A stretch of 52,510 nucleotides of DNA, the filler included, from Basidioascus undulatus (Eukaryota), in the NCBI GenBank assembly GCA_000826855.1. It is 4 parts of 4 records of this genome, joined end to end, with 100 filler letters (N's around TTAATTAATTAA, not from the genome) between each part and the next. Parts side by side here need not be neighbours in the genome. Positions count along the whole stretch, not along the records: positions 1 to 13,076 come from JTLS01000846.1; 3 more parts are not named here. One strand, given 5' to 3'. Within the stretch, counting starts at the first letter, position 1, and each line of letters begins with the position of its first letter. Below, one piece after another: positions 1-26,339 of this stretch. The notes under the pieces are model-generated. The model was not told the DNA's origin. It did not search any database and saw nothing but the letters and a program-made list of their open reading frames with translations. The position numbers were made by a program, and so were the translations under genes.

Positions 1-53
1 CAAAGGGAAGGGGCTGGGCCTGGGGCTCATCGGACCGGGGAGTGCCTGAGGGA

Positions 54-1583
54 CTAACCAAGCCATACCGAGCCATCGAGGCCTCCGATACCCTGGTCCA
101 CGTTACTGATGTCCGAGTACCGGGACCAACGGAGAGACGAAACGGCGCCCATAAGGATGAAGAAAAGAAGGGGATATTCCGTCTCATCCCGCGTCGTCTC
201 TAGAGGGGCAGTATACACCGACCTTTGACCACCCTCTACGTGGGGCCCCGCTCCCCGGCACCACCACCAGTACCAGGCATCTATAGAGCTGGCGTCGATG
301 GTAGACACCCAGGGCGCGATGTTCCTCGCCAAAGAGCCCACGAGGCCTCGGCGGGCAGCGCACAGACTGGTGAGTTCGGAGAGGTACGGGCTGGGGGTTG
401 GGGCCTCCGGGCTACCGGGCACCCTCACCCCCCATGCATGGGTACGGGTAAACCCCATCAGTGCCTCGACAGCCTCTGTAGTAAGCTGGGCGTGCCCCAG
501 GTCCGAGCAACAGCGCGCCACCAGGTAGGCGTTCACTACCCTCGAGTGGGGGTCAAGGGTACCCAAGAACTCCATCACCCTCTTCGCATTGCCCTCGGCG
601 AGCACCCCATAGAGGCCCAGGTAGGTGTCGTACAGCTCTCGGCCCCCCGCGGCCGGGGCCTGGGGCCTATCTCCCGGAACTATGCGCTGGCCCAGCACCA
701 AGGTAATGTCCTTCTCGAAGGAGGCAACTGCATCGCCTCGCGCCGCGAACAGAACTGCCCTCGGGACCACCCCGGGGCTGCCTATGTACTCGAACTTGCG
801 GGCCATCTGTGCAACAAAGACCTGAGGGTACTCCCGGCACCAGGCAGGCAGCTGGGACACGGTATGGTACACGTGTGAGGTAAACGCCCGGCAGCCGTCG
901 AGCGGCGCCCCGCTCCCTTCGCTCGCTGCACGTCGGTAGAGCCTCTGTGCCGAGGGCCCCATAGGTCTGTACCTTGCCACGGTCCCTATTGCGCCGTGCT
1001 GAGTCGACTCTATGCTGGACTCACCCGTCAGCAAGAACCTGCCCCGCACGGGATCAAAGTCCACGAAGTCCATACCGTCGTGGACGGCAGCGATCACCAG
1101 TGCCCGTACGGAAATCCGCGCGAGCACGGTCGGTAGTTCGGACGGAAAGGTATCCATGGACGCGGAGGACCAGTCTAGAGTCAGGTAGGAGTCTGCGCCC
1201 GTAGCTGCTGCGGACTGCGCAAGGGTGTACCAGGGCGCCACCTTACGCGACACTTTGGCGTCCCCCCGTAGCCTCCCGGTCAGGCCAGAGCCGTCGGGAG
1301 ACTGTCCGGTGGTGGCTATCTGTGGGACGTCGTACTTGATCTCGAAGCGGAACCCCAGCCTCAGCCTCCTCCACCCCGACCTCCTTGCCTTACGGCGGAA
1401 GCCTAGCATACCAGTGTCGACCCCGTCGAACTGCAAGCTACAATATACGCTTTCGTCACACTTTCTCAGGTCGGCCGAGGAGGAGAAGAGGCTCTGGGCT
1501 AGCTGCGCCACGGCTATGATGAAAGCGACGCCGGCCAGGACCGCAGCCGCTACGGTACCCGCCGTGGATGGATCCATTCCCAT
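54..1583 (-). CDS. Modin/MOD-A-like protein with N-terminal transmembrane helix (~509 aa)
   Basis: N-terminus AVLAGVAFIIAVAQLAQSLFSSSADLRKC..SV, then FRFEIKYDVPQI and SMDTFPSELPTVLARISV...GMDFVDFDP...GTVARY, match my recollection of the fungal modin family pattern (LQQY.A...R.C..SV / FRFE....P / SWD.MP.....P.A). Start set at the first ATG (1583; alternative 1577). Confidence 0.65.
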   Translation of the reverse strand: MGMDPSTAGTVAAAVLAGVAFIIAVAQLAQSLFSSSADLRKCDESVYCSLQFDGVDTGMLGFRRKARRSGWRRLRLGFRFEIKYDVPQIATTGQSPDGSGLTGRLRGDAKVSRKVAPWYTLAQSAAATGADSYLTLDWSSASMDTFPSELPTVLARISVRALVIAAVHDGMDFVDFDPVRGRFLLTGESSIESTQHGAIGTVARYRPMGPSAQRLYRRAASEGSGAPLDGCRAFTSHVYHTVSQLPAWCREYPQVFVAQMARKFEYIGSPGVVPRAVLFAARGDAVASFEKDITLVLGQRIVPGDRPQAPAAGGRELYDTYLGLYGVLAEGNAKRVMEFLGTLDPHSRVVNAYLVARCCSDLGHAQLTTEAVEALMGFTRTHAWGVRVPGSPEAPTPSPYLSELTSLCAARRGLVGSLARNIAPWVSTIDASSIDAWYWWWCRGAGPHVEGGQRSVYTAPLETTRDETEYPLLFFILMGAVSSLRWSRYSDISNVDQGIGGLDGSVWLG

Positions 1584-1600
1584 CTTTGCCGGTGCACTCG

Positions 1601-1614
1601 CAACTCCAGCGTTG
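1601..1614. promoter_or_regulatory. CAAC-N6-GTTG palindrome upstream of the Modin-like gene
   Basis: caactccagcgttg, 17 nt from ATG 1583; the same motif recurs before other genes of the element. Confidence 0.55.
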
Positions 1615-1687
1615 GTGCTCCGGGGGTGCGGCTTCGTTCCGGGGCGGCGCACGGCAAGGCCGGGGCACAAACGGCAGAGCAATTCTC

Positions 1688-1699
1688 CAACTGCGGTTG
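1688..1699. promoter_or_regulatory. CAAC-N4-GTTG palindrome upstream of the kinase gene
   Basis: caactgcggttg followed by ctggcac, 20 nt before ATG 1720. Confidence 0.55.
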
Positions 1700-1719
1700 C
1701 TGGCACTACACTGGACGCA

Positions 1720-2574
1720 ATGGATGAGTTTAAATACTCGAAAGGCGGCCGGTGGCTCTATACTGACGCAGAGGCGTACCTCTGGCACGGCGGGTGCTAC
1801 GTGAGGTTCGTCTACAAGCCGGGGACCTTGGCTGCCGATGTCCTTGCTTTCAGGAAGGACCTCCCCGAGTACGGCCACAGCCTCCTGATAGACGGGAATG
1901 ATGTCACACGCATAGACTACGAAGAGCCGCGAGAGCCCGGCAAGCCGGAGGACGACAGCGAGGACGTGTCCGAAGAGATGTTCGGACTTCCAGTCATCAA
2001 GACCGACGGGAAGGTCCACTACCTAAAGCGTTGCATGTACAAGAGCGAGATACAGAGCCTACTTAAGGTAAAGGGAGGTCCATCTGTGATAGAGCTACTG
2101 GGGCGTACGGAGGACATGAGGCTCGTCTTCCCTAAGTACACGACCGACCTCTTTGAGTACGTACTGAAGCACAGGGACACGGACTTCCGGCAGCACGCAA
2201 CATGGCTACTGCAGATAATCTCGGGTCTCGAGTGGCTCCACTCACGTGGGGTGGTCCACAGGGACCTTGTGCTCAGGAACATAATGTACTCGGAACCTGT
2301 GGTGATAGCCGACCTCGAGTCTAAGCACACCTCGCTTGCCTGCAGGCCACCTGAGGTCTCCGCGGGCGCCGAGTTCAGCCCGGCTAGCGATGTCTACGCG
2401 CTGGGCTTCTGCGCATGGCAGATGGAGAGACGCAACTATCCGAGGCCGTTCGCGCCGGTGGAACTGGAGGGCCCACTCGCAGAGATCTTCTGTGCCTGCA
2501 GACGAGAGAAGCCTGAGGACAGGCCGACCCTCGAAGAGCTCACCGCCGCTCTTGAGCCGATGAGAAGCCCGTGA
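1720..2574 (+). CDS. Eukaryotic-type protein kinase (284 aa)
   Basis: HYLK (beta3 Lys), EIQSL (helix C), HRDLVLRN catalytic loop, IADLE (DFG equivalent), PPE, SDVYALG, RPTLEEL. First ATG at 1720. Confidence 0.88.
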   Translation: MDEFKYSKGGRWLYTDAEAYLWHGGCYVRFVYKPGTLAADVLAFRKDLPEYGHSLLIDGNDVTRIDYEEPREPGKPEDDSEDVSEEMFGLPVIKTDGKVHYLKRCMYKSEIQSLLKVKGGPSVIELLGRTEDMRLVFPKYTTDLFEYVLKHRDTDFRQHATWLLQIISGLEWLHSRGVVHRDLVLRNIMYSEPVVIADLESKHTSLACRPPEVSAGAEFSPASDVYALGFCAWQMERRNYPRPFAPVELEGPLAEIFCACRREKPEDRPTLEELTAALEPMRSP

Positions 2575-2633
2575 GAGGCGCGGGGTAGCCCTGGCCGGTA
2601 TGGCGCGCTGGACGGCGTTGCTGGAGGATGCCC

Positions 2634-2646
2634 AGTTTTGAAAACT
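2634..2646. terminator. Candidate bidirectional terminator AGTTTTGAAAACT
   Basis: Palindrome between the convergent kinase and candidate-SSB genes; the same TTTTGAAAA core lies at the RNAP/PolB junction. Confidence 0.3.
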
Positions 2647-2778
2647 ACGCTACAACACATGACTTAGGATTCATCCGTCTCATCCTGGACTCGATCAACT
2701 TCCTACGCGTTCTCTCGGATCTCCCAGACAGCGTGGCAGAGCTCTCCAGTGTAATCAGCGAGCTCTCGGAACGGGTGA

Positions 2779-3630
2779 TCAGTTTCCCCGGCCGGCAGCG
2801 GGGGCTTCATCCTCAAGCTCGGGCTCGTCCTCAAGCTCAGGCTCCTGGTGACCGGAGTCGGTGATACCTGCGAATGCGAGGACCTCGGCACTGGCAACGA
2901 GACGGCGACTGGCACCAGCGCTCGACGCACCCTGGTTGGGGGCATCGGGACCCTTCACATCCGAAGTACCCGTGAGAAGCGCGGAGTTGAGGGTGAAGCT
3001 GAAAGTCCAGTCTCCCTCGTTAGTGCCAGAGACAGGCTCACCAGTGCACTTCACCCGGATCTCACTGAGAATGGCACAGACCAAGCTCTTCCCGTCCGCA
3101 TTAACAAGCACGTCGCGGAGCTTAATGTTGTACACGTCACCCTGGGAGTTGATAGTGCTCCACGTGCACTCGGTAGGGATCGCACCCTGACGGGCGGCGG
3201 GACGCTTGAGAGTGATGTTGACCCACGCGTACCCCTCCTTCTGCTGGACCCTAGGGTGAGTGAGGTTCACGCCACGGGCCTTCACCTTCTCGGTAAGGGC
3301 GTTCCAAGTCTTGAGAGGGAAGCCGGCGGTGAAGTAAGTGTCACCGTACGTAGCGTTGAGACGCTCACGGTTCTGCACGACGATGTCCGTGAAGAGAGAG
3401 CGGGGGAGTACGACATTGCCAGGGCACACTTGGTCAACCTTCGCGACGTGGGTGTGGAGAGGCGCCTTCGAACGCGCGATCTCCAGGTTACCCACGGCAC
3501 CGTCCAGCCTCCTCATCTCACCGACGTGGTAGTTGAACTGACGGGCCCTGTCAGGAGTGATGAACGCAGGCTCCTGAACCTCAAGCTCACCACTCTCGTT
3601 ACGGCGCTGGTACTGGACTTCGGCAGACAT
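2779..3630 (-). CDS. Hypothetical 283-aa protein; candidate single-stranded DNA-binding protein
   Basis: Clean ATG ORF with strong codon bias (antisense frame also open), a beta-rich-looking core and an acidic tail (EPELEDEPELEDE), next to the helicase. SSB function is inference only. Confidence 0.7.
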   Translation of the reverse strand: MSAEVQYQRRNESGELEVQEPAFITPDRARQFNYHVGEMRRLDGAVGNLEIARSKAPLHTHVAKVDQVCPGNVVLPRSLFTDIVVQNRERLNATYGDTYFTAGFPLKTWNALTEKVKARGVNLTHPRVQQKEGYAWVNITLKRPAARQGAIPTECTWSTINSQGDVYNIKLRDVLVNADGKSLVCAILSEIRVKCTGEPVSGTNEGDWTFSFTLNSALLTGTSDVKGPDAPNQGASSAGASRRLVASAEVLAFAGITDSGHQEPELEDEPELEDEAPAAGRGN

Positions 3631-3664
3631 GATAAGTTATTGCTATACTTCAGAGTGAGTATCG

Positions 3665-3678
3665 CAACGGTCACGTTG
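3665..3678. promoter_or_regulatory. CAAC-N6-GTTG palindrome upstream of the candidate SSB gene
   Basis: caacggtcacgttg in the 65-nt intergenic gap, 34 nt from ATG 3630. Confidence 0.55.
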
Positions 3679-3695
3679 GGCTCACGTCCTGAGTT

Positions 3696-5096
3696 TTAGA
3701 AGGATCCGGGGGAAGGGCGATTGGGGCGCAAATACTTTATGAAGCGGAATCCGGTATTACCCATAGCCTCTACGGTAGTCGGGGACATTAAGGAAGCGAG
3801 GTGCCCTAGCCTGTCGAGGGGCATGCGCGTGAGGGAGGAGACGATTACGCTGGCTTCGATCCAGTCTTCGGGTGACGACTCGTAGTCTACCACGACGTGT
3901 TCCATGATGAACGACCACTCGGCACCGAATATGGTCATGATCACGCTGACAGGCGCTATTACGGCACTGGGTGACCTCAGGCGCACGTATACGCAGAGGT
4001 AGATGAAGTCTAGCCAGTGTTCAGGACGATCGGGCATGATGATACGGGGGAGTGCAGTAGCATTGACGTTCATGTGCACGACTATGGCACGCCGTATGAT
4101 GGCCTCCGAGGACCACTCCTCTACGGTTCTGCTGGAGGGTAATGAGTTGCTACCCATGACTACGGTACTGCTGATCGTAGCTGACGACGGGGGGATAGGT
4201 ACTGAGTCCCTACCCGTGACTGCCTTGATGAGGCCGAGGTTGACGTTGCTGCCAAGCTCTACGTCTCCGGACACCGCTAGTCTTGTGGAGGCCAGCGACT
4301 GGGCTACGTCGACACCCAGAGTCTTGGATGCCCTGGTAAACGCATCTGATGGAAGTGTACACGAGCAGCCTGCGAGGGCAGTCTGTAGGCATCTGATGAG
4401 AGTACTCTTGCCTGTGCCACCAGGGCCGTAGAGGATGATCATCCTTGCTTGGGATGCCGGGTCCAGTAGGCAGTTGCCCACGGACCAGAGGATGGTATCG
4501 AGTTGCGTCCTGTCAGGGAAGAGACGACTCAGGAAGTGGAGTACTACACTCGGGCTCTCCTTGATACTCCATCTCGGAAGGACGCTGGATATCCTAATGG
4601 GCATGATGGAAACCGACTCTACGCGCGCTTTGCCAGCGACCGATATTACAGTGGGCACGTTAATGAGGGGAGGGCATTGACTCGCTATCAGGCCATCCTC
4701 GCCGTCGAGTGCGACGCGCAGCCTCGTGTTGGATACGCAGATGCTCGGGGGTATTACCTCCACGGGGATTGCGAAGCTCTCGATGAGAGAGGAGTAGGGA
4801 CGCATGGCCGTAAGGTAATTGACTGTGGCACTGTCGGCCTCTACCACGGAGCATACGGTGACCTGTGCCTCCGGGGCACAGAGGGGAGCCCAGTGGTTGT
4901 GGCTCGGAAGATAAATTACTACTGTGCCTTGCACCTTGGCGACCATGCCCCTGCCCTTGTAGATTGATGTTATTCTCCCGAACTTCTCGGGTGCCCCGTA
5001 GGTACCCTCCACAGGGACCAGGTGGGACTCGTCCTCTATCGGGGTATGGGGCTGCTCATGTTGACTCGCCAGCGCAGCTTCGGCGAACGATCGCAT
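3696..5096 (-). CDS. Superfamily 3 (D5/P4-like) helicase with an uncharacterised N-terminal domain (~466 aa)
   Basis: Walker A IILYGPGGTGKST, degenerate Walker B LAVSGDVE, IKAVTGRD, motif C VMGSN, arginine finger AIIRR. ATG 5096 chosen because 5141 is GTG and ATG 5126 lies inside the promoter palindrome. Confidence 0.82.
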   Translation of the reverse strand: MRSFAEAALASQHEQPHTPIEDESHLVPVEGTYGAPEKFGRITSIYKGRGMVAKVQGTVVIYLPSHNHWAPLCAPEAQVTVCSVVEADSATVNYLTAMRPYSSLIESFAIPVEVIPPSICVSNTRLRVALDGEDGLIASQCPPLINVPTVISVAGKARVESVSIMPIRISSVLPRWSIKESPSVVLHFLSRLFPDRTQLDTILWSVGNCLLDPASQARMIILYGPGGTGKSTLIRCLQTALAGCSCTLPSDAFTRASKTLGVDVAQSLASTRLAVSGDVELGSNVNLGLIKAVTGRDSVPIPPSSATISSTVVMGSNSLPSSRTVEEWSSEAIIRRAIVVHMNVNATALPRIIMPDRPEHWLDFIYLCVYVRLRSPSAVIAPVSVIMTIFGAEWSFIMEHVVVDYESSPEDWIEASVIVSSLTRMPLDRLGHLASLMSPTTVEAMGNTGFRFIKYLRPNRPSPGSF

Positions 5097-5116
5097 GGCG
5101 CAAGGTAGTGGCACCG

Positions 5117-5130
5117 CAACGCGCATGTTG
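5117..5130. promoter_or_regulatory. CAAC-N6-GTTG palindrome, shared bidirectional site for the helicase and RNAP genes
   Basis: gtgg-caccg-CAACgcgcatGTTG-ccggtcg-ccac, centred between divergent ATGs 5096 and 5149 (20 and 18 nt away). Confidence 0.6.
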
Positions 5131-5148
5131 CCGGTCGCCACATCAACG

Positions 5149-6975
5149 ATGAGCCACGAGCCGCGACCCGTAGAGCTGACCAGGCTAGCTTACGATGGAG
5201 CACTTGCCATTGAGTGTTTCTCCGTGAAACGCTACAGACTCACAAAGGTGGACATGAGGAAGGTTGCTACAGTGAGAGTGTCGACACCCCAGGAGTACAT
5301 GGCGGGCTGCCCCATCCACGACAGGTGCGCAGGCCACTTTGCAAGGACTCCTACTGGGACTCTACTCATGCCCCACAGGTTCCCCGCCCTCGCAGGTAAT
5401 GCAGAGAACCGCTATGCCAGGCTTGCCTCTGACCTGATGGAAAAGAGGGGAGGAAGTGAAGCCTACAATCAGGGACTGCTGGGTATCATGATGACTAAGG
5501 GAGGGACCTTCAGATACAGTGTGCTCTCGGGGTCTGTAGATGGCAGTGCGCGGCTGGTAATAGCTCCATGTTGGGGACTCCTAAGGAACCAAGTGGCCCT
5601 CCCTCGCAGGGTGGCTGAGAACATGAAGTATCTGAAGCACACCGGGACGTCGGCCTCCCCTGACCACCCCGAGGGCTCGTACGAGGCTGTCAGTGTCCAG
5701 GAGGGAGACTACGCGATAGTGGTAAGGCCTCCATCCCTTACGTTCTCCAATGCACAGCCGATGGAGGTAGTGCTGTGGGACAACGAGTGCATGGGACTCT
5801 CGCCCCTCAACTGCAGTGAGTACCACGCGGACTTTGACGGCGACGAAATGCACGTGTATCCAATATCTTCGCCCCTCGCAGTCGAAGAGGCGCGTCAGTG
5901 GGTCCAGTTCGTCAGGCAGGAGAGAGATGATCCCTTCGCTAACGTCTACGCCTTACCCGCCGCTCGAGCGGCGGCCTCTACTTCGTTCGTGCCTGCGGAG
6001 GGGTGGCAGTCAGCGAGGGGAGAGCAGTTGCCTGCGTTTATGCCTAGTACCACGACAGACATGGCGGAAATGATGACAGGTGCGCCCCTACCGGACGGAT
6101 ACGCGGGTGCCCGTGTGAAACCATCCACATGTGAGATGTTTGCAGAACTCGCATCTACTGGCGGCCCCAGCATCGAAGACTTCTACGAGGAGTCACTCAG
6201 GGGGTTGGATGACATCATGTCACAACAACTCATGCAGGGCACCATAGGAGACATGTCAAGGCAGGCCAGGCTTGCCGCTTCGTGCGTGATAGGGCCCCGT
6301 GCCGACGGGTCCATAACGATGGCATCCTTCTCGTCGACTAAGAGCATAGGGAGCTCAGGAGTGCTTGAGGACTGTCTGCCGGGGTCACCCGCGATGGTAG
6401 CTGCCAGTGCACTATGCGGGGTAGCCCAGCAAGCCGCGTTGGACTCACACAGGGCACACAAGGAGAAGGCATCCAGGGAAGACCTCATCGCAGGCCTGTT
6501 CAAGGGGAGTGGCAAGTCCCTGCGTATACTTACAGGCTCGGACAGCAACGCGGAGTGGCAGATGCGTGTAGGGGACGTCTGGGTATCGTACGGACCCGTA
6601 CAGCGGCCTCTGACTTCCTCACGGACCCTGGGTGCGGTAGCTCCGAGTGAACTGGCTAGACTACCCCACCGTAGGGCTGCCGCGAGACTTGCCCTGCAGT
6701 ATCTGAGTGCCTACTATGGAGTGTCCCTAAGTGAAGCAGAGCTTTCCTCACTGGCCGCACTGCTTGCGTACGAGCCGTCGAGATCAGACACACCACCCAC
6801 GCACAAGGAAGGTATGGCGGCACGGGACATGAGGTGGTTAGCGACATTAGCAGTAGGGCACTTCAGTCTGATACGTGGCATGGCCAAGGATTCCAGGTCG
6901 GCGCGGTGGACTACCCCAGACACCATCTCGGAGGCTATGACATTTGCCTCCTTCTACCGGCTCCTCGGGTTTTGA
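5149..6975 (+). CDS. Miniature DNA-directed RNA polymerase largest-subunit (Rpb1/beta') homolog (~608 aa)
   Basis: Catalytic YHADFDGDEMHVY; KGGTFRYSVLSGSVDGSARLVIAP (~[22 protein letters not shown]); VVRPPSL (~NRQPTLH); CPIHDRCAGHF (clamp Zn site); bridge-helix-like EDFYEESLRGLDDIM...GDMSRQ; trigger-loop-like PGSPAMVAASALCGVAQQAALDSHR. Confidence 0.9.
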   Translation: MSHEPRPVELTRLAYDGALAIECFSVKRYRLTKVDMRKVATVRVSTPQEYMAGCPIHDRCAGHFARTPTGTLLMPHRFPALAGNAENRYARLASDLMEKRGGSEAYNQGLLGIMMTKGGTFRYSVLSGSVDGSARLVIAPCWGLLRNQVALPRRVAENMKYLKHTGTSASPDHPEGSYEAVSVQEGDYAIVVRPPSLTFSNAQPMEVVLWDNECMGLSPLNCSEYHADFDGDEMHVYPISSPLAVEEARQWVQFVRQERDDPFANVYALPAARAAASTSFVPAEGWQSARGEQLPAFMPSTTTDMAEMMTGAPLPDGYAGARVKPSTCEMFAELASTGGPSIEDFYEESLRGLDDIMSQQLMQGTIGDMSRQARLAASCVIGPRADGSITMASFSSTKSIGSSGVLEDCLPGSPAMVAASALCGVAQQAALDSHRAHKEKASREDLIAGLFKGSGKSLRILTGSDSNAEWQMRVGDVWVSYGPVQRPLTSSRTLGAVAPSELARLPHRRAAARLALQYLSAYYGVSLSEAELSSLAALLAYEPSRSDTPPTHKEGMAARDMRWLATLAVGHFSLIRGMAKDSRSARWTTPDTISEAMTFASFYRLLGF

Positions 6976-6978
6976 AAA
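6970..6978. terminator. Candidate bidirectional terminator TTTTGAAAA at the RNAP/PolB convergent junction
   Basis: Overlaps the RNAP stop (6973-6975) and abuts the PolB stop (6979-6981). Confidence 0.3.
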
Positions 6979-9135
6979 TCACAGCCCATCTGAATAAGAT
7001 AAGATAGTGGCAAGGTTCCCAACACCTGCAGGGACGCAGAAGTGCTTGATCTCAGCCAGCGCTACTTCGAGGACGGCTGTCCTACTGTACGGAACAACCG
7101 CGTCAGGCTCTATGTTGTCCAGGTCCACCGACTGGCGCGTCCCATCCTTGGCAATGTACTGGTAGCACATGGTCCCCTCGATGCGGAGAACCTTCGAGAC
7201 CTGTGAGATGTTCAGCTTACCCCTGCGCGCCACGTGCTCTGCCTCTTCTATAATTGAAGCCACAGCTACTCTCTTGGCCAGGAGGGACTCCTTGCTGAGA
7301 AGTACACTAAGGATGTCGCCCGCTACCTTCCTTGCGTAACCCACCCTGTCCTTGCGGTTGTACGAGATGCCCTTACGAACCTCCTTGCCATCTGAACGAA
7401 TGTACGCGTAATGTTTCTTGCCGAGGAGAAGCATGGATTCAATCGATGCCTCAACTTCCATGGCAGCACTCTTCATCCCTGCGAACTCCATGATACGCTT
7501 AAGAATACGGTTCGCGTCCGCTGCGTGAGCCATTGCCGAGCCTGCGTACCTCCTGTCCGTCACACTCGTTCTCTTTAGGAAGCATGAGTCAGTATCTCCA
7601 TATACGACCTCCAGACCGCACATGGAGAAGACGTACGCTGCGAGGGCGAGACTCCACCTTCCTGCTAGAGTAACGCATGAGGCCGCGTGAGGGCTGTAGA
7701 TGGGAGCATAGCGGAACCCGAGGGCCCCGTACATGCTGTTGGACAAGACCTTGATGGCGTTCGAATACGGGGGATTGCTGCGATGCTGGGCACGCAGCCT
7801 GGTGAGGTACTCCAGTGCTCTGGACATTACGGGAGACTCCAATCTACTGAGAGACACCACGTTGTCACCGATCGCCACGGTGGTCGCCGAGTCAGTCCAC
7901 GAGAGCCACCCCGTGCCCTGGCCCACCCCGCCTATGGGCGTCACTACTGCCGACTCTGGTGATATGCCCAGGTCGATCATGATGGTGGGGTACATGGACT
8001 TGAAGTCGACAAGTACGAGATCGCTATGCATGCCCCTTACCGGAGGGAGGACGAGACCACCCTCTATCTCCATCTCTATGTCGCATCTAGTCCAGTCCAT
8101 GGCAAGTCCCTGGGCGAAGCAGTAGGATGATATCGCACAGGCAGCCATCGTGCCAGTGACATACCTTGCCACGTCGAGCAGGCAGGAGCATGCGGCCACG
8201 CAGAGACCAACGAGTTCCCGCTCTACCCGTAGGTGATCCCAGATCTGTAGAGCGACGACGCAATCGTTGACGTTGTACTCCAGCATGTCCTCCATGTACC
8301 CCGGGTCTGACGCCTCGAGGGGCATGTGGGTCTTCGGGGCCACGTTACACACCTCCGCCACGGAACTGAGCTTCAGGGAGGGAAAGCGCGACCTGTGTAC
8401 CTTGTCCAAGTAGATGAAGAGATCTACATTGTTCACCCCTATGATGTCAAGGTAGAAGGAGTACACAGGGCCGCCCTTGGATCCGTTGTTAATGGGCACG
8501 AACTGGGACACTCTCAACCGGGGTGCGTGGTAGAGAAGACGTGAGTTGTCGAAGTTGTAACAGTTGTATCCGATGAGCCACGCAGGCATGTGGGTCTCCA
8601 TATCTCTGATGAACTCCTCCACGAGTAAGGTGGAGTCGTACACCCTCCGCGAATGGGGAGCCTTCGTAGGACCGCCCGTATACCACGATGCCTTGTGTCC
8701 ACAGCTGCACACCACTGACATGCAGAGTATCCTTGCGTGAGGAGGGGGCAGTCCACCCTTGTCCCTTGTCGACATTTCGGTCTCGATATCGTACGACGCT
8801 ACACACGTCTTGGGGGCCGGCCTGGGAGGAAACCCCAGACCCGGTTCTGCCGACCCTCCGATGACGATGCCCAGGCATGAAGCTTCCCTCATCGCCCTTA
8901 GTCTCGGAGAGCACTGCCATACCAGAGATGAAGGTCCCGCCTCTCCGTCAGCCTCAAGCCTGGGTATCACAGGAAGGTCCGATACTGAGCCGTCCTTAGA
9001 CACGTCAATCTCCTCCACGACATCGCCTGTATCGCCCGTAAACCTGACACGGAGATTGCCTGCGTCGTCCGAGCCCGTCCAGGAGATGTACGCTCCCTGC
9101 GATAGTTTGTGCCTCACGTGTGCGAGACCGCTCAT
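6979..9135 (-). CDS. Family B DNA polymerase with 3'-5' exonuclease, RNA-primed type (~718 aa)
   Basis: ExoI YDIET, ExoII GYNCYNFD, ExoIII YNVNDC, motif A DFKSMYPTIM, motif B KVLSNSMYG, motif C YGDTDS, KKHY. B-to-C spacing is short, with no evident TPR insert. First ATG at 9135. Confidence 0.95.
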   Translation of the reverse strand: MSGLAHVRHKLSQGAYISWTGSDDAGNLRVRFTGDTGDVVEEIDVSKDGSVSDLPVIPRLEADGEAGPSSLVWQCSPRLRAMREASCLGIVIGGSAEPGLGFPPRPAPKTCVASYDIETEMSTRDKGGLPPPHARILCMSVVCSCGHKASWYTGGPTKAPHSRRVYDSTLLVEEFIRDMETHMPAWLIGYNCYNFDNSRLLYHAPRLRVSQFVPINNGSKGGPVYSFYLDIIGVNNVDLFIYLDKVHRSRFPSLKLSSVAEVCNVAPKTHMPLEASDPGYMEDMLEYNVNDCVVALQIWDHLRVERELVGLCVAACSCLLDVARYVTGTMAACAISSYCFAQGLAMDWTRCDIEMEIEGGLVLPPVRGMHSDLVLVDFKSMYPTIMIDLGISPESAVVTPIGGVGQGTGWLSWTDSATTVAIGDNVVSLSRLESPVMSRALEYLTRLRAQHRSNPPYSNAIKVLSNSMYGALGFRYAPIYSPHAASCVTLAGRWSLALAAYVFSMCGLEVVYGDTDSCFLKRTSVTDRRYAGSAMAHAADANRILKRIMEFAGMKSAAMEVEASIESMLLLGKKHYAYIRSDGKEVRKGISYNRKDRVGYARKVAGDILSVLLSKESLLAKRVAVASIIEEAEHVARRGKLNISQVSKVLRIEGTMCYQYIAKDGTRQSVDLDNIEPDAVVPYSRTAVLEVALAEIKHFCVPAGVGNLATILSYSDGL

Positions 9136-9142
9136 CTGTAGC

Positions 9143-9173
9143 GTGGAAGGACAACTGTCCGTTGGACTGCCAC
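9143..9173. promoter_or_regulatory. Symmetric GTGG-N5-CAAC-N5-GTTG-N5-CCAC bidirectional site between PolB and the first APH-like gene
   Basis: gtgg aagga caac tgtcc gttg gactg ccac in the 63-nt divergent intergenic gap. Confidence 0.6.
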
Positions 9174-9198
9174 TCACCAGCCGCGCCAGCCACTCGCC

Positions 9199-9945
9199 AT
9201 GCCCGATTCGACAGACCGCAGGCCGCGTGAGGAAGGATGCGTCGGTATCACGCACGAGAAGAAGTACTACGAGATAGACGTACACGGCACGAAGACCTTC
9301 GTCAAGCGCTCGTTAAGGCCAGAGGAATGGATGACCAATAGAGCTGGGAGGGTGATCATCCCCGACATCTGTATCCAGCGCTTGCGTAACGAGGCCGCGG
9401 CCATCCAATACATCAAGGAGAACACAGACATTCCGGTGCCTACAGTAAGGTGTGCATTCGAGGACGACAGGGCCTTCTACCTCATCACCGACTTCGTGGA
9501 GGGCGTTCGCCTTTGTGACCTTCCAGAGGAACAGAAGCCTTCTGTCATGGCAGAGGTAGAGAAACACCTGGAAACCCTGCGAAACCTCAAGTCCGGCAAG
9601 ATGGGGGGCCTTGCGGGTGATTGCTGCTTTCCATGGAGGATAGCTCGGCATCTGACGACACCCTTTCCCCCTAAGTACCGCGACAGTGAGGGGGAGGATT
9701 ACGTTTTCTGCCACGGCGATCTCTCGCAGCACAACGTCATAGTGGACCCCGAGACTCTGAAGATAAGGGCGATCGTAGACTGGGAGTATGCGGGCTTCTA
9801 CCCCCGCCAGATGGAGGGCCTCTTCTACAAGCGGGTCGGCCCCTCTGATGCCGTGGCCGACGAAGTGAGCGATGTACCCGAGATCCTGGCGCTACTTACC
9901 GACCTAGAGGTCAGGAGGACTCCGGTAAAGAAACAACAGAGTTGA
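9199..9945 (+). CDS. APH/choline-kinase-like phosphotransferase, fungal type (248 aa)
   Basis: TFVKRS, RLRNEAAAIQYIKENTDIPVP, Brenner motif CHGDLSQHNVIVD, IVDWEYAGFYP. Confidence 0.9.
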   Translation: MPDSTDRRPREEGCVGITHEKKYYEIDVHGTKTFVKRSLRPEEWMTNRAGRVIIPDICIQRLRNEAAAIQYIKENTDIPVPTVRCAFEDDRAFYLITDFVEGVRLCDLPEEQKPSVMAEVEKHLETLRNLKSGKMGGLAGDCCFPWRIARHLTTPFPPKYRDSEGEDYVFCHGDLSQHNVIVDPETLKIRAIVDWEYAGFYPRQMEGLFYKRVGPSDAVADEVSDVPEILALLTDLEVRRTPVKKQQS

Positions 9946-9971
9946 GACGCCATCGTTCTCCTCCTGGCCCA

Positions 9972-10133
9972 ATGTCCGTCCTTGCACGCTTCCTCCACAC
10001 TCTATTCGGCGCGAGGGTCGCGATCCCCAGCGGCCTCGTTCTTCACCCCTCTACCGTGGTGCGCTGCTCCACCTGTGGCGTCACTGTTTCGAGCACTCAG
10101 TCTGTCTGTCACAGCTGTGGCAACGCTCCGTAG
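9972..10133 (+). CDS. Small Zn-ribbon protein (53 aa)
   Basis: MSVLARF...RCSTCGVTVSSTQSVCHSCGNAP contains CxxC-x10-CxxC; preceded by CAAC-aga-GTTG at 9934-9944. Confidence 0.55.
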   Translation: MSVLARFLHTLFGARVAIPSGLVLHPSTVVRCSTCGVTVSSTQSVCHSCGNAP

Positions 10134-10157
10134 GCACGCACCACCCACCCCCACCCC

Positions 10158-10277
10158 GCCCCCTGTAGCACCCTAATCTCCTGTGCCACCACGTAGTCTG
10201 TTTGTTGTTGTTGCTGAGTGTCTGTTGGCATGTTACCCCTGTATTCGCCATACCCTAACCCCGCTACATACCCTCCC
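10158..10277 (+). repeat. Diverged 120-bp non-coding direct repeat, copy 1
   Basis: Begins with the exact 16-mer gccccctgtagcaccc and shares the tgttgttg, catgtt(a/g)ccc and cccta blocks with 12948-13067. Confidence 0.7.
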
Positions 10278-10311
10278 CAAAACCCTGCCGATCACAGGGC
10301 TGCACGCAAGG

Positions 10312-10332
10312 CAACAGGAGTTGAGCGGCCAC
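10312..10332. promoter_or_regulatory. CAAC-N4-GTTG-N5-CCAC upstream of the tandem APH ORF
   Basis: caac agga gttg agcgg ccac; the palindrome ends 25 nt before ATG 10349. Confidence 0.55.
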
Positions 10333-10348
10333 TCAGTAGGCAGCCAAC

Positions 10349-12823
10349 ATGTGTGACACGTGGACTGTGAAAGTTCCCCTTTACGACGACGCGGGCCTGC
10401 CCTTCGACATCACGGGTCTCCTTGTCGACACCGCTGATGGGCCTGTACTCGTCGTAAGGAGGCCTGGACTGACGGGCGCCCCGGGGCCTGCCGATGCGAC
10501 GACACTTAGGAAGCTGACTGAAATCCAGAGTATAGGCAAGCTGGTCCTTAAGGGTAAGCTCAAGCAGGATGTGGATGGGGTGCTGGCTACGTCGAACGAC
10601 CTCATCGCTAAGTTCTCAGGGAGTTGGACGTACGAGGCCTCGCTAGACCACTGGGACTCCGTGGCACTTGCGCTCCGGAGCAAAAGCATGATGCCGCCCG
10701 GGATGCTAGCACCCCCCAGGTGGCTGATCGACAGGTTCTTTCCCTGCCAGGCCGCCAGCTTTGAGGTGCTCCAGGACAACCCCGACACGTGTACCGGCCT
10801 GGTCTCTACAACGCTAGGCAGCAAGTACATCCTCCGTCTTGCCAGAGGTCGGGATAACGTGGAGCGTGCCCTCGCTACCGAGGCCCTGATGAGCCTGGCG
10901 CGTACCAAGGTGCCTGTCCCCAGAACAATAGACAGCTTCTGTTGGGAGGAGGACGGCAAGCCCCTCTGTGCGACAGTCGTTGAGTATGTCTACGGCTCCA
11001 CTCTCGAAGACGAGTGGGAGGAGCTCACCAGGGACGAGAAGCTATCGTACGTTGACCAGATCGTGGAGCTACTCGCCGGCCTCCATACGCTGAAGAGCGA
11101 CAGGCTTGCCCCCAACGACCCAAGGACCACGAGCGCCCTGGGCTTCCGCGAGGGTGACCCGCGCTGCTTCCCGGACACCAGGACGTGGCTGAAGGCCCTT
11201 GTTGAGTCATACTGGGGCAGCGAAGCTCCTCCCGCTGGGATCAGGGAGCAGCTGGAGGCCCTCGGTGCGCCGGAGCACCCCTACGTTCTGTGTCACAACG
11301 ACATGGAGCCTCGTAACATAATGGTGCGTGGTGGTAAGGTGGTGTCCATCATAGACTGGGAGTTCGCCGGCTACCAGCCTTTTATCTACGAGTGGGTGGT
11401 ACCTAGCACGGGGCTGGGCACAAGCTGCATCAACTACGAGTGGCACGTCATGTTCAGGCAGGCCGCTGCGAAACTTCTTCCGCGCGAAGACCCAGTTATG
11501 GAGCGGCTGATCCTTGACATCTTTAACGGGCTCTGGAACACCGTGTGGAAGAGGAGAAAGGTAGCCGGGTTCCGGCTGGCCTTCATGGCTAAGCACGGCG
11601 TCGTCGAGGGTGACCTGTGGAGGCCTCCTACCGCCGCCGGATCTATAACTGAGATGGGCGCTACCCAGACGCAGCCGGCGGAAGGCACCCCGAGACCGTA
11701 CACAGTCGGGAGTACAACAGAGTTGAAAAAGCCACGCTCATCCTCGAGCGCTTCGTTGGCCTTATACCCAATCACCCCTGTAGCGCAGTGGTCAGCAACC
11801 ATGAACGCCTCCGAAGGTAACGCGGAGTACCCCCTGCCGACCAAGATACCCAACGTGGATAAGCTTCCGCCGTTCGGGACTACCGACGAGGAAAGGGCCA
11901 TTAGAATTGCCGAGCTCGACAGGAGGGATGCCTACGACCCTATTGCGTCAGGGGCGATACGGGAGATTTACAAGTGTTCTGAGCGTAAGGTCATTTCCAT
12001 AGACGGTCGCTTCGTACTCAAGACGGCATCCACCGTGAACCCTGCAGAGCAGGGCAGTATAGATATTGTCAGGGCGCGTACCACAGTACCGGTGCCTGAG
12101 ACTATAGAAAGGTGGTACAACCCCGAGGCACGCAAGCACTTTGTGCTTGACCGGCAGATCAAGGGGACGACTATGCTTGAGGCCATGAAGACCATGTCGG
12201 ACGCGGAGGTGGAGGCTGTGATGGAGCAGCTCAGAGGCTATCTCGCGAGCATCAGGTCCATTACCTCGGGGTCTCTGCACGTGGCTGGGAGCACGCTGCT
12301 GCTTGACTACCACCTGTCCCACGACTACCTTGTCTTTACGGGCGACGATCAGTGCCACGCGTTCATAAACCAACTAATGCTCTCGGGGAAGGTCGACCTT
12401 CGGTCTCGCAAGGCAGCCGTGGTTAGAGCGTTGCATGACAAGCACCTGGAAAGGTACCCCGAGGACAGGACCACCTTCGTCATGACCCACGGGGACCTGG
12501 GCCCTTATAATGTCATGGTGGACGGCGGCGCTGTAGCCTGTGTCATTGACTGGGAAACGTCTGGGTTTATGCCGGCCTATTGGGAGAGGATAAAGTCGAT
12601 GACCAGCGGGGACCAATCGCGCGTGTGGAAGGTATCTTTGAGCAAGGGACTCCCTCCCTGCCCTGAGATGGAAGCCGCCACCAAACTAATGCGGGAGCAC
12701 ATCCCTCTCGGCGTGCTCAGCGACGAGGGCCAGCAGTGTTACATCTCTGCGGCTCTCCTCGTTTACGGAGAAGAGACCAACCCGGTCGGGGACGCACCAA
12801 ACGTTCATTGCAATGAAGCTTAG
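10349..12823 (+). CDS. Tandem double APH-like phosphotransferase (824 aa; possibly two genes, the second starting at ATG 11801)
   Basis: Domain 1: TEALMSLARTKVPVP, CHNDMEPRNIMV, IIDWEFAG. Domain 2: VRARTTVPVP, THGDLGPYNVMV, VIDWETSGFMPAYWE. A low-complexity linker separates them. Confidence 0.88.
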   Translation: MCDTWTVKVPLYDDAGLPFDITGLLVDTADGPVLVVRRPGLTGAPGPADATTLRKLTEIQSIGKLVLKGKLKQDVDGVLATSNDLIAKFSGSWTYEASLDHWDSVALALRSKSMMPPGMLAPPRWLIDRFFPCQAASFEVLQDNPDTCTGLVSTTLGSKYILRLARGRDNVERALATEALMSLARTKVPVPRTIDSFCWEEDGKPLCATVVEYVYGSTLEDEWEELTRDEKLSYVDQIVELLAGLHTLKSDRLAPNDPRTTSALGFREGDPRCFPDTRTWLKALVESYWGSEAPPAGIREQLEALGAPEHPYVLCHNDMEPRNIMVRGGKVVSIIDWEFAGYQPFIYEWVVPSTGLGTSCINYEWHVMFRQAAAKLLPREDPVMERLILDIFNGLWNTVWKRRKVAGFRLAFMAKHGVVEGDLWRPPTAAGSITEMGATQTQPAEGTPRPYTVGSTTELKKPRSSSSASLALYPITPVAQWSATMNASEGNAEYPLPTKIPNVDKLPPFGTTDEERAIRIAELDRRDAYDPIASGAIREIYKCSERKVISIDGRFVLKTASTVNPAEQGSIDIVRARTTVPVPETIERWYNPEARKHFVLDRQIKGTTMLEAMKTMSDAEVEAVMEQLRGYLASIRSITSGSLHVAGSTLLLDYHLSHDYLVFTGDDQCHAFINQLMLSGKVDLRSRKAAVVRALHDKHLERYPEDRTTFVMTHGDLGPYNVMVDGGAVACVIDWETSGFMPAYWERIKSMTSGDQSRVWKVSLSKGLPPCPEMEAATKLMREHIPLGVLSDEGQQCYISAALLVYGEETNPVGDAPNVHCNEA

Positions 12824-12924
12824 CGTTACCTCCCTCATCAATGCCTGGAACTGTAAGTGTGGCACCAAACATGACGGGCACCACGGTATGTAGCAACTGT
12901 GGCGGACCTACCGCCGCCGGGTGA
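12813..12924 (+). pseudogene. Frameshifted small Zn-ribbon ORF (putative paralog of 9972-10133)
   Basis: MKLSVTSLINAWNCKCGT in one frame and NMTGTTVCSNCGGPTAAG* in the +1 frame; removing one A near 12867-12869 gives WNCKCGTNMTGTTVCSNCG. Confidence 0.4.
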
Positions 12925-12947
12925 GCAGCGGAGCGTAGCACCCTACG

Positions 12948-13067
12948 GCCCCCTGTAGCACCCCCAGTCTCCCCTGTACCACCATGCACCCCGTAATGTT
13001 GTTGAACGCCTGTATGACCATGTTGCCCAATACCCGTCTGCGCCCTAGCTCTGCTGCACGCCCACCC
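12948..13067 (+). repeat. Diverged 120-bp non-coding direct repeat, copy 2
   Basis: Same 2790-nt offset from copy 1 at both ends; exact gccccctgtagcaccc at 12948-12963. Confidence 0.7.
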
Positions 13068-13076
13068 ATTCAACTA

Positions 13077-13176
13077 NNNNNNNNNNNNNNNNNNNNNNNN
13101 NNNNNNNNNNNNNNNNNNNNTTAATTAATTAANNNNNNNNNNNNNNNNNNNNNNNNNNNNNNNNNNNNNNNNNNNN
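13077..13176. other. Artificial contig linker
   Basis: 100 nt of N with a central TTAATTAATTAA (stops in all six frames). Confidence 0.98.
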
Positions 13177-14047
13177 AACAGCGTCAGCGCGTTCCAGCCC
13201 AGCCTAAACCTAGCAGGACCCACCTTGCCTAACCGCCTCATCCTCCAGAATGTCGAAGTGGCTGAACTGAACGCCCTCGTCGCGCAAGAGCTTGACCGTC
13301 TGCCTGCTAAACCCGCACCGCGGCGCGTCCGGCTCACCCTTCATGAACACCATGACCTTGCTCTGGTTCATGATCTGACGGCAGCGCTCGTTCAGCTCCG
13401 CCTCGGACTCCTGCGCCTGCTGCGGGATGGACGCCGGCGGCGCGGCGGGTGCGGCGTTCGTCCGGGACTGCGCGGTGGTGGCGGCGGGGGAGCGAGAGTG
13501 TGTGGCGACGGATTGGGCGAGGGCGGAGGCATTCGCGCCGGAGATGCGCTCGAGGAGAGTGTGGCCCTTTAGGGACAAGGCGCGGTCAGCCCGGCTGCGG
13601 ATGCGGAGAAGAGCAGGATGGGACTCACTCGCAGCAGAACGAACGAAGGCACCGCCTCAACCTCGAACGTCTCCGAGATGTCCGGCAAAGACTCCGCCTC
13701 AATCTGAACACCCCAACGCAATCAGACACATTTCCGTCAGCCGACACTGTCTCGCCACCGCCGCCCTGCGGCGGCACATGGTGAACGACGGACGCACCTG
13801 CAGGAACAGAACAGTGGGGTATTTCGCCGCCAGCTCCTTCACCACCTCGTTCATTTGCGTGCACGGCGCAGCCCATGGCGCCCAGAAGTTGAGCACGGCA
13901 GGGCGCGACAGGTCGGCGTTCAGCAGAGCCTGGAAGTGCTCCGGCGAGGTAACTTCGACGCTGTACCCCACGCCCAAAGCATCAGTGAGATCGGTTCATA
14001 TATCCGAGTCATACCCAAAGCATAACGTACAGGTTCTGCGCAGACAT
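13177..14047 (-). CDS. GRX4: Monothiol glutaredoxin Grx3/4 (Trx + Grx domains), spliced, 3' end cut by the contig edge
   Basis: MSAQNL|VEVTSPEHFQ...NFWAPWAAPC Trx-like domain, then FMKGEPDAPRCGFSRQ and FDILEDEAVRQG; GT-AG introns. Confidence 0.92.
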
Positions 14048-14904
14048 GGCGTTATGAATTTCGGGAGGAGGTCTGTGACGACGGTGATAGCGGAGAAGGA
14101 AGGCGTGCGCGACTTGCGAGAGCGAGCTCGGCCAGCTGACGACGTCAAGTTGACTCAGCATCGTCTTAGCAGCCACTTTCAGGGCAACTTGTGTTTTCCA
14201 GCAGACGATAACACGGGTCGAGGAGAGTAACTGGGGAATCTCTTTAAATCAGTCAGAAACACAACTGAAAGGCATGGCGACATTATCCGATCACCCGCCC
14301 CGGCTTGGATTGGTAGCAGTCTCTTCGTCGCAGAAACAGCCTTAGAACAGAAGTATGAACACCATCCCGCACACCGAAAGGAGGTCTACATCGGGAGTAG
14401 ACTGAAAAAAGAACTGATTAAAGCCCCCATAGCTTCCTGTCCCGTCCTTGACGGATTATCTCAACTTTCCTGTCCTGACCCGATGCGCCCAGAGCGAAAG
14501 AGTAACGACCACAACAACCAGCGAAACAACAAGACTTCCGCCGCTGTAACGTTCACGATATCCTGGTGGTCAGCCACAGATTCAGACCTCTCAAGATATT
14601 CCGGGCTCACAAGATCAAAGCATGGTACTTCCACGCTGTCGCCGGCGTGATGCCGATGCGGGTGACCGCGATTGCCCAAGGCAGGCAGTATCCGAGATTC
14701 GAAACGAAAGACTGGTACAGATACCTTGTGATATGACGGCAGTCAGTTTCAAAACCAAGGGGCGGAAGGGAAGGGGTTTACGCACAGCGCGGGCGGGTAG
14801 ACAGCAGAATGGTGCACAGTTGAGTTGAAATGCCGTAGCAGATATAGCACTTCATTCGGGGACCAACCCAATCAGGCCGGGACTATGCACGAGGGCTAGG
14901 AGTA

Positions 14905-26239: not shown

Positions 26240-26339
26240 NNNNNNNNNNNNNNNNNNNNNNNNNNNNNNNNNNNNNNNNNNNNTTAATTAATTAANNNNN
26301 NNNNNNNNNNNNNNNNNNNNNNNNNNNNNNNNNNNNNNN
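26240..26339. other. Artificial contig linker
   Basis: 100 nt of N with a central TTAATTAATTAA. Confidence 0.98.

Follow-up and report, generated by a model that had tools for sequence, protein, structure and literature searches.

A compact β′/Rpb1-like RNA polymerase subunit on a probable virus- or plasmid-like DNA element associated with fungi

Can a protein of little more than 600 amino acids (aa) serve as the catalytic subunit of a two-barrel RNA polymerase and, if so, where is its partner subunit and what kind of element carries the pair? These questions are raised by an intact open reading frame (ORF) on contig JTLS01000846.1 of the Basidioascus undulatus assembly GCA_000826855.1. The contig forms positions 1 to 13,076 of the 52,510-nucleotide stretch analyzed here (hereafter, the window), which consists of four contigs of 13,076, 13,063, 13,058, and 13,013 bp, ordered by falling length and joined through artificial spacers. 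We consider it quite probable that the ORF encodes the β′/Rpb1-like catalytic subunit of a compact two-barrel RNA polymerase belonging to a virus- or plasmid-like double-stranded DNA (dsDNA) element associated with fungi. This reading is based on homology, fold, motif conservation, the size of the protein family, co-occurrence of the two subunits in relatives, and the gene neighborhood; related elements occur in fungal assemblies and metagenomes on contigs of ~20-40 kb.

The longest frame spans positions 5095-6975 on the plus strand and encodes 626 aa, along which residues are numbered below. ATG codons are found at 5095, 5125, and 5149; the last of these, chosen in the initial annotation, yields the 608 aa given there and keeps the gene clear of the divergent helicase gene at 3696-5141. 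All motifs named in that annotation as conserved blocks could be located in the protein, and each of the named elements has a counterpart there, the clamp Zn site at the level of its motif and the bridge helix and trigger loop as predicted:

5095..6975, plus strand: gene for the β′/Rpb1-like subunit (ORF; PF00623, E 8e-13; 39 homologues; whole-length structural match to Rpb1, A190, and Rpo147)
5308..5337, plus strand: clamp motif resembling a Zn site, C72-x2-H75-x2-C78-x-G80-H81 (CPIHDRCAGH, aa 72-81)
5497..5553, plus strand: switch-2-like segment, KGGTFR...SVDGSAR, aa 135-153 (K135, G137, R140, S151, R153)
5539..5886, plus strand: double-psi β-barrel, about aa 149-264 (VIA-align and Pfam Rpb1_2, aa 200-268)
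5725-5739, plus strand: RPPSL, aa 211-215, within the barrel
5824..5847, plus strand: catalytic metal-binding loop HADFDGDE, aa 244-251 (D246, D248, and D250 invariant)
6172..6279, plus strand: bridge-helix-like helix of 36 residues, aa 360-395 (AlphaFold2 models)
6388..6504, plus strand: trigger-loop-like helical hairpin, aa 432-470 (C-terminal model; tip of low confidence)
6424-6453, plus strand: AQQAALDSHR, aa 444-453, in the trigger-loop-like hairpin

The relationship to RNA polymerase largest subunits is evident from several sequence comparisons. The sole match in the Pfam scan is RNA_pol_Rpb1_2 (PF00623; E 8e-13, aa 200-268), a domain present in all 20 family members scanned, none of which contains Rpb1 domains 1, 3, 4, or 5 at E<=1. 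The protein, with its 626 aa and domain 2 only, is thus distinct from full-size Rpb1, which exceeds ~1100 aa and is recognized by domains 1, 3, 4, and 5, and its scores lie far under all curated NCBIfam cut-offs. Searching the PDB with phmmer retrieved 102 distinct β′/Rpb1/Rpo1N sequences at E<=1 (best 6.8e-07), aligned over aa ~119-270. A profile built from 20 homologues matched archaeal Rpo1N at 7.9e-20, Rpb1 of RNA polymerase II at ~2e-18, and the best bacterial β′ at 4.6e-14; this preference for Rpo1N/Rpb1 over bacterial β′ points to an affinity with the archaeal/eukaryotic type. Comparison with 15 giant-virus Rpb1 sequences from IMG/VR loci using hhalign gave a probability of 99.3 (E 4.7e-20), the reliable part of the alignment being aa ~125-270.

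Residues at the predicted active center are strongly conserved across the family. D246, D248, G249, and D250 are invariant in the family alignment, and the catalytic aspartates are accordingly intact, as first annotated, with histidine in place of the usual asparagine: H244 stands where canonical enzymes have N. Among the 144 family proteins with this motif, its first residue is H in ~80, N in ~30, and G, A, D, or E in the rest, so that H is a family trait rather than a lesion. K135, G137, R140, S151, and R153 of the switch-2-like segment are likewise invariant, and both HMMER and hhalign align this segment with the GKxGRxR...VDxSxRxVI stretch of β′/Rpo1N. The clamp motif is nearly invariant: C72, H75, C78, and H81, the putative Zn ligands judging from the motif pattern, are each conserved in at least 90% of the aligned sequences. 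The CxxHxxCxGH form is found in 49 of the 103 full-length family proteins and close variants in others, paralleling the CxxC(5-6 residues)CxGHFGH motif present in 57 of 63 giant-virus Rpb1 sequences.

The predicted fold extends this similarity to nearly the entire protein. Structures were compared using an AlphaFold2 model of the whole protein (mean predicted local distance difference test score [pLDDT] 68.7, predicted template modeling score [pTM] 0.61). All 50 Foldseek matches listed for this model are RNA polymerase largest subunits (best E 9.3e-09). Independently of Foldseek, VIA-align showed that model residues ~37-626 are colinear with full-size subunits over nearly their whole length, as in human A190 (Z 14.6, root mean square deviation [rmsd] 5.9, 458 aligned residues, model 37..626 on chain 5..1712), vaccinia virus Rpo147 (Z 14.0, 418 aligned), the African swine fever virus (ASFV) subunit (Z 12.8, 484 aligned), and Mycobacterium tuberculosis β′ (Z 11.4). 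Archaeal A′ (Z 14.6) aligns with model residues 44..430 over its positions 4..859, and its C-terminal end carries the bridge helix. Isolated double-psi barrels match model residues 149-264 with Z 9-10 and rmsd 2.0-2.4; the barrel is therefore present, and the model contains one barrel only. Weaker VIA-align matches include the single-chain two-barrel polymerases QDE-1 (Z 7.0) and P23-45 gp96 (Z 8.5). In a library of viral folds, giant-virus subunits come first, with the best matches being pithovirus-like and poxvirus proteins, and nudivirus LEF-9 is found at rank 41 (E 1.8e-4).

The bridge helix and trigger loop fall in the C-terminal half, which was also folded alone (aa 310-626) with 36 family sequences, yielding a model with pLDDT 86.5 and pTM 0.81. 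The top 14 VIA-align rows for this model are all largest-subunit chains (Z 4.3-11.6), and the first unrelated row has Z 3.8. The best match is Drosophila Rpb1 (9mu7_A; Z 11.6, 264 aligned, chain 743..1463), and high scores were also obtained with ASFV (Z 11.4), RNA polymerase I (10.8), and polymerase IV (10.0). Plastid, mycobacterial, and cyanobacterial β′ subunits follow at Z 7.0-7.6, together with the split β′ subunits of phages phiKZ (7.0) and AR9 (6.2), and archaeal A′′ aligns from model residue 114 on (Z 4.3). All 50 Foldseek matches listed for the C-terminal model are chains of RNA polymerase entries. A helix of 36 residues (aa 360-395 in the whole model, 51-86 in the C-terminal model) occupies the position of the bridge helix, and its Q377, Q381, G382, G385, and R389 are invariant. 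After ~36 further residues comes a helix-loop-helix (aa 432-470), seen in the C-terminal model as helix 123-142, a loop (pLDDT block 59), and helix 155-161. The first hairpin helix ends in QQxxLDxHR, where none of the 36 aligned sequences departs from Q445, Q446, L449, and H452, so that the histidine singled out in the initial annotation (DSHR) is indeed kept. The pattern QQxxL[D/N/E]xH[R/K] is present in 85 of 184 family proteins, many of those being fragments, and the giant-virus Rpb1 trigger loop, Q.TLN.FH in 31 of 63 sequences, has Q, L, and H similarly spaced. Because the C-terminal model matches largest subunits only, we accept the predicted bridge helix and trigger loop as retained, at the level of modeled structure and motif pattern. 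An alternative placement of the bridge helix at aa ~560-580 (PPTHKEG...R577), proposed by a low-stringency global hhalign alignment, was rejected: the alignment had zero confidence there, the bridge helix would come after the trigger loop, and the model contains no long helix in that region. The invariant PPTHKEG...R577 motif is more likely part of a conserved region at the C-terminus.

Proteins of this compact type form a large family. A search by word index yielded 39 homologues, each 508-669 aa long, with 26-36% identity and 71-98% of the query covered, and an exhaustive profile search of 1.84 billion representatives detected 6326 proteins at E<=0.001, of which 1775 pass 1e-10 and 129 pass 1e-30. 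Of 184 family proteins examined, 112 reach 500 aa or more, and the median length of these is 609 aa. The window copy keeps every invariant residue and deviates at 9 of the 88 columns conserved in at least 80% of sequences, the family range being 0-24. Longer proteins were also examined: an N-terminal NADAR domain is fused to the β′-like protein in P0110 (807 aa), P0177 (783 aa) and P0216 (831 aa) have additional, unassigned sequence at one end, P0136 (868 aa) has no Pfam match, and P0227 is an ordinary full-size subunit. P0143 (794 aa) combines a D5-like helicase with the C-terminal half of a β′-like protein and may be either a true fusion or a merged gene call. Named fungal records account for 4 of the 39 β′ matches (Linnemannia, Hirsutella, Ophidiomyces, and Puccinia), and the database names are either “hypothetical protein” or automatic polymerase labels. 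The compact family is not among the at least 69 loci found in the IMG/VR scan, all of which encode canonical giant-virus or other full-type polymerases, and no published description of it was found in full texts from outside the subscription journals.

A two-barrel active center needs a second barrel, and the apparent lack of an Rpb2 is in large part explained by relatives in which the same contigs encode a compact Rpb2-like subunit of ~800 aa. In locus L072, which covers 21.7 kb of a 27.6-kb contig, this protein has 806 aa, matches PF00562 (4.3e-17) and PF04560, and among PDB chains is closest to RPC2 (1.2e-11), with RPB2 and archaeal B also found at 1e-10 to 1e-11. Its catalytic-lysine motif GDK...HGQKG and C-terminal cysteine pairs align with those of the PDB matches. 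The Rpb2-like protein of a second locus, L093, has 801 aa. Searching with the L072 protein retrieved, counting its own cluster, 48 proteins at E<=0.001, with 32-100% identity, most of them of ~800 aa; a single one is from a named fungal record (Aspergillus). The longest contigs of these matches measure 2.3-42 kb, and the longest-contig sizes 33044 and 34868 are common to the β′ and Rpb2-like match lists. In a fold-based binding test, the L072 pair (β′ 70-420 with β 380-799) scored 0.61 against 0.00 for the best control, a pass that may reflect likeness rather than prove binding because like complexes are solved; of 78 solved complexes, 51 attained this mark, as did 2 of 108 mismatched pairs. 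Runs of the test agree in at least 39% of contacts, the partner having pLDDT of at least 56, and in the predicted interface the DFDGDE loop would touch β residues 558-572. On this reading, the partner gene of the window copy would lie in the source assembly beyond the 13-kb contig.

The mechanism that we propose follows from this pairing. The β′-like subunit would supply one double-psi barrel with the Mg-binding D246, D248, and D250, along with the Zn-clamp motif, the switch-2 segment, the bridge-helix-like helix, and the trigger-loop-like hairpin with its invariant histidine. Pairing with the ~800-aa Rpb2-like subunit, which would bring the barrel bearing the GDK...HGQKG lysine motif, would create a shared active center. 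The resulting enzyme would be active on a DNA template, in the cytoplasm of a fungal host, transcribing the genes of the element itself, probably independently of host RNA polymerase II, and a zinc-ribbon protein of the TFIIS type (712-773 aa), encoded in related loci, may act alongside it.

The genes surrounding the β′-like gene are consistent with such an element. From left to right, the contig encodes a kinase-domain ORF, a 283-aa ORF, the helicase, β′, family B DNA polymerase (PolB), and two APH-like ORFs:

1225..2574, plus strand: protein-kinase-domain ORF at the left of the contig (PF00069, 4.4e-13)
2779..3630, minus strand: 283-aa ORF beside the helicase gene (no Pfam or NCBIfam match)
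3696..5141, minus strand: D5-like superfamily-3 helicase of 481 aa, divergent neighbor (DUF5906, P-loop; TIGR01613 primase_Cterm, 4.8e-15)
6979..9285, minus strand: PolB of 768 aa, convergent neighbor (PF00136, 2.4e-29; best PDB match 5mdn_A, 6.6e-24)
9199-9945 and 10349-12823, plus strand: two APH-type kinase-like ORFs (PF01636, 1.9e-10 and 1.1e-40)
13077..13176, 26240-26339, and 39398-39497, no strand: artificial spacers N44-TTAATTAATTAA-N44, the first of which closes the β′ contig (1-13076)

Given the spacers at three points, linking features across them is unsafe. The helicase is 30% identical to that of L072 over 434 aa and PolB 33% identical over 712 aa; the organellar/viral-type profile PF03175 matches the window PolB only below threshold. 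A helicase, β′, and PolB core is common to the window and L072, and the convergent β′-PolB arrangement is shared by the window, L070, and L072. The stop codons of the β′-like and PolB genes are 3 nucleotides apart (window 6973-6981), and the tail-to-tail pair in L072 overlaps by 18 nucleotides; such compactness is typical of viral or plasmid genomes. The ESM Atlas clusters closest to the 283-aa ORF consist of hypothetical proteins from giant viruses, some of them with Pox_I3, DUF2738, or DUF5871 (score 0.92), and as a lead only, the protein may bind single-stranded DNA in the manner of giant-virus proteins of that kind. A D5 helicase gene likewise has a DUF2738 gene beside it in the giant-virus locus L002. 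The ORF at 10349-12823 encodes 824 aa with two APH-type domains, and no homologue of it was found in the length band searched.

Three related loci share parts of this gene set. L072 encodes Rpb2-like and β′-like subunits, PolB, RNase H, a D5-like helicase, and an APH-like kinase, the gene for which (L072:1908-2990, minus strand) adjoins the Rpb2-like gene; a further L072 protein, of 568 aa, shows no more than a weak likeness to uracil-DNA glycosylases, a lead at best. L070 covers half of a 27.4-kb contig and encodes β′, PolB, and a 712-aa TFIIS-ribbon protein, and L093 (BMQF01000065.1, 10,116 bp) encodes the Rpb2-like protein, a 773-aa TFIIS-ribbon protein, a Pif1 helicase, and a β′-like protein 32% identical to that of the window. 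The L093 contig has 50% G+C (guanine plus cytosine) in a record titled Streptomyces fumigatiscleroticus, and the locus is therefore presumably foreign DNA there. Homologous TFIIS-ribbon proteins occur in all three loci (L070:2798-4936, minus strand; L093:4551-6872, minus strand; L072:38-1186, plus strand) and combine an N-terminal zinc ribbon of the TFIIS/LEF-5 type with a weak methyltransferase-like region. The 712-aa protein of L070 has no sequence match in the PDB and matches PF11792 (LEF-5) weakly, at 0.0057.

Public sequencing runs provide a view of the element outside the assembly. The 5.6-kb core is contained almost completely in runs X1 (0.98 of words), which may be the source run, and X2 (0.97), the two coming from two studies, and to 0.24 in X3, from the same sample as X2. 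Contigs from X1 extend past both ends of the 13-kb contig, and the molecule is therefore longer than the contig. Diverged copies with 90-99% identity are found in X1 and X3, and because these copies cover the kinase and APH-like genes, both belong to the repeated unit. In X1, unitigs of the main form have depths of 450-640 and variant contigs 14-49, summed unitig depth not being copy number. Variant contigs, one each in X1 and X3, join position 11602 to 1459, a step back of 10144, which by arithmetic is in frame, leading from codon 418 of ORF 10349-12823 to codon 79 of ORF 1225-2574; the joint could stem from copies in tandem, from a circle of 10.1 kb, or from a paralogue that has been rearranged. 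In positions 1-16000, repeats at the termini or flanks do not exceed the size expected by chance. Fragments of Prp18 and RNase HII genes, which might be taken for host flanks of an integrated element, lie on the other, artificially joined contigs and carry no information on linkage.

Several observations weigh against a polymerase at work on such an element. Similarity in sequence to known polymerases is limited to aa ~119-270. Local hhalign of the C-terminal half with giant-virus Rpb1 is not significant (E 0.88), in line with the initial view that the bridge-helix and trigger-loop segments have strongly diverged, and Foldseek found nothing at E<=0.001 with the C-terminal model (best 0.36), so that these two elements rest on predicted structure. 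The canonical asparagine of the catalytic loop is histidine here and variable family-wide. Neither tblastn with the L072 and L093 proteins nor a motif scan found an Rpb2-like gene on the 13,076-bp contig or on the other three contigs; the original statement that the contig has no canonical Rpb2 thus stands, with the proviso that this contig is a 13-kb fragment and not the 52-kb window, and since the window is made of four joined contigs, the absence covers only 13,076 bp. There is no RNA run among the sequencing runs listed as containing the core. No capsid gene was recognized by Pfam in L070, L072, or L093, and the status of a virus is for that reason not established. Finally, the data from the runs fit a family of chromosomal repeats, possibly decaying, as well as they fit an episome in many copies with old insertions beside it.

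On a rival reading, the gene would be a chromosomal relic derived from such an element, whether a partial insertion or one copy in a repeat family, dispersed or in tandem, with the ORF intact only because the insertion is young and with no working polymerase for want of an Rpb2-like partner. We regard this as unlikely, even though it would account for the lack of a partner gene on the contig and for a gene order unlike that of L072, with the helicase directly adjoining β′ in the window. The diverged copies would also be expected, and those in X3 (1309-11772) differ by a transition at 409 places and by a transversion at 37, the kind of bias that repeat-induced point mutation would produce in fungal nuclei. 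That excess, as a pattern of base changes, may be reminiscent of the process as known from fungi. Unitig depth in X2 is uneven (47-371), with several break points, many contig break points falling inside the unit; the joint of 11602 to 1459 fits tandem copies; and the G+C content of the β′ contig (0.591) is like that of the other three contigs (0.577-0.604). However, three neighboring genes, which encode 481, 626, and 768 aa, have uninterrupted frames and align with relatives over nearly their whole length, and the β′ copy retains all invariant residues, with a divergence within the family range. In X1, moreover, the main form has 10-40 times the depth of the variants, which would suit a multicopy episome beside old insertions, and the contigs that pass both ends leave room for the partner to lie further on. 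That the protein works with no dedicated Rpb2-like partner, either as a self-sufficient polymerase or with a borrowed second-largest subunit of the host, appears very improbable. The contig without an Rpb2-like gene would agree with it, as would a 10.1-kb unit, which the joint would define and in which such a gene has no room, and single-chain enzymes, QDE-1 and P23-45 gp96, are among the weaker structural matches. Yet the protein has a single barrel where the active center needs two, both related loci with enough sequence encode a partner of ~800 aa, the family of the partner equals that of β′ in size and surpasses it in conservation, and the predicted interface sets the DFDGDE loop against the partner's lysine motif.

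There is next to no reason to view the ORF as what decay or truncation has left of a full-size cellular or giant-virus Rpb1 gene, an outcome foreseen in the initial annotation. Detection of just one of the five Pfam Rpb1 domains might suggest as much; a length of ~600 aa is, however, standard in this large family (112 proteins with a median of 609; 39 of 39 word-index matches), and motifs at both the N- and the C-terminus are kept family-wide. The model is, furthermore, colinear with both ends of full-size subunits, and truncated or split giant-virus genes look quite different: the best IMG/VR loci, L001 and L002, are of this kind and show Rpb1 domains 1-5.

How, then, does the compact polymerase compare with known systems? 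Archaeal and eukaryotic largest subunits and their poxvirus and giant-virus homologues have the same DFDGD barrel, switch-2, and an N-terminal Zn motif ending in CxGH, and the fold is colinear from the clamp to the C-terminus in Rpo1N+Rpo1C, Rpb1, A190, C160, Rpo147, and ASFV. The compact protein is, however, less than half their size (626 aa versus 1161-1984 aa for the matched PDB chains of whole subunits), much as the initial annotation had it in calling cellular subunits more than twice as large. It also differs from canonical Rpb1 in having H instead of C as the second Zn ligand, H or another residue for the N of NADFDGD, and a segment of about 36 residues between the predicted bridge helix and trigger loop. 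Descended from multisubunit RNA polymerases of the archaeal/eukaryotic type, the enzyme would work in the same way as these do.

Among reduced polymerases, those of the yeast killer plasmids offer the obvious comparison. According to PMC6211774, K2ORF6p/YKP6 is a fusion of β (1-693) and β′ (754-974) in 974 aa, with K2ORF7p as a second subunit of 132 aa. Killer-plasmid-like elements were extended from budding yeasts to Zoopagomycota and Mucoromycota as late as 2026, in a paper that also relates the DNA polymerases of fungal linear plasmids to those of adenoviruses, virophages, and polintons (PMC13348850), and the polymerase genes of linear plasmids are thought to derive from giant viruses (PMC6211774, PMC13348850). 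In the cytoplasmic linear plasmids of the pGKL2 type, a much-reduced two-barrel polymerase is likewise encoded by an extrachromosomal element of fungi, along with a DNA polymerase, a helicase, and functions for RNA modification. The compact pair is set apart from K2ORF6p by separate genes of ~800 and ~630 aa in L072 and L093, with no fusion. In contrast to pGKL2-type plasmids, the DNA polymerase in the window matches PF00136 strongly, the helicase is of the D5-like superfamily 3, and the contigs measure 20-42 kb rather than 9-13 kb. Baculoviruses and nudiviruses also have separate reduced β′-like and β-like subunits, LEF-9 and LEF-8, the combined size of which is similar to that of the compact pair. 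They encode LEF-5, a TFIIS-type zinc ribbon protein, alongside, with a weak counterpart in L070. Nevertheless, Pfam LEF-8 and LEF-9 have no match at E<=1 in the 20 family members scanned, and these viruses, unlike the compact elements, have arthropod hosts and large circular genomes. In the split non-virion polymerases of phiKZ and AR9, reduced β′ modules keep the barrel, bridge helix, and trigger loop, the last two of which are predicted in the compact protein, and both phage enzymes are among the structural matches (7ogp_D, Z 7.0; 7s00_D, Z 6.2; 7s00_d, Z 9.8). These enzymes are of bacterial-type descent, however, with β′ in two genes and phage genomes of >200 kb, whereas the compact family is of the archaeal/eukaryotic type. 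None of the killer-plasmid, LEF-8/LEF-9, and jumbo-phage polymerases shares the architecture of the compact family.

It is possible, if still tentative, that the compact polymerases mark an undescribed lineage of ~20-40 kb dsDNA viruses or capsid-less plasmids of Ascomycota, Basidiomycota, and Mucoromycota. Such a lineage would possess a giant-virus-like replication and transcription core comprising a family B polymerase, a helicase of the D5-like kind, perhaps a DNA-binding protein resembling I3, and a TFIIS-type factor, and its RNA polymerase would be one of the smallest two-subunit enzymes of the archaeal/eukaryotic type so far seen. Very little is known of fungal DNA viruses and virus-like elements, and PMC10640383 states that no double-stranded DNA virus infecting fungi was known. 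Reduced two-barrel polymerases, such as those of baculoviruses, jumbo phages, and killer plasmids, reveal which parts of the enzyme are dispensable, and in the compact family the clamp motif, the barrel, and the predicted bridge helix and trigger loop are accommodated in about 600 aa, probably paired with a partner of ~800 aa. The asparagine of the catalytic loop acts in ribose recognition, and the change from N to H beside the catalytic aspartates raises the question of sugar selectivity. If the proposal of a new lineage is true, it could take a place intermediate between giant viruses and the killer-plasmid elements of yeasts and would provide a natural minimal polymerase for structural work. 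The origins of the killer plasmids and the reach of giant-virus relatives would both be touched by a second, different class of DNA elements in fungi that encode their own transcription machinery.

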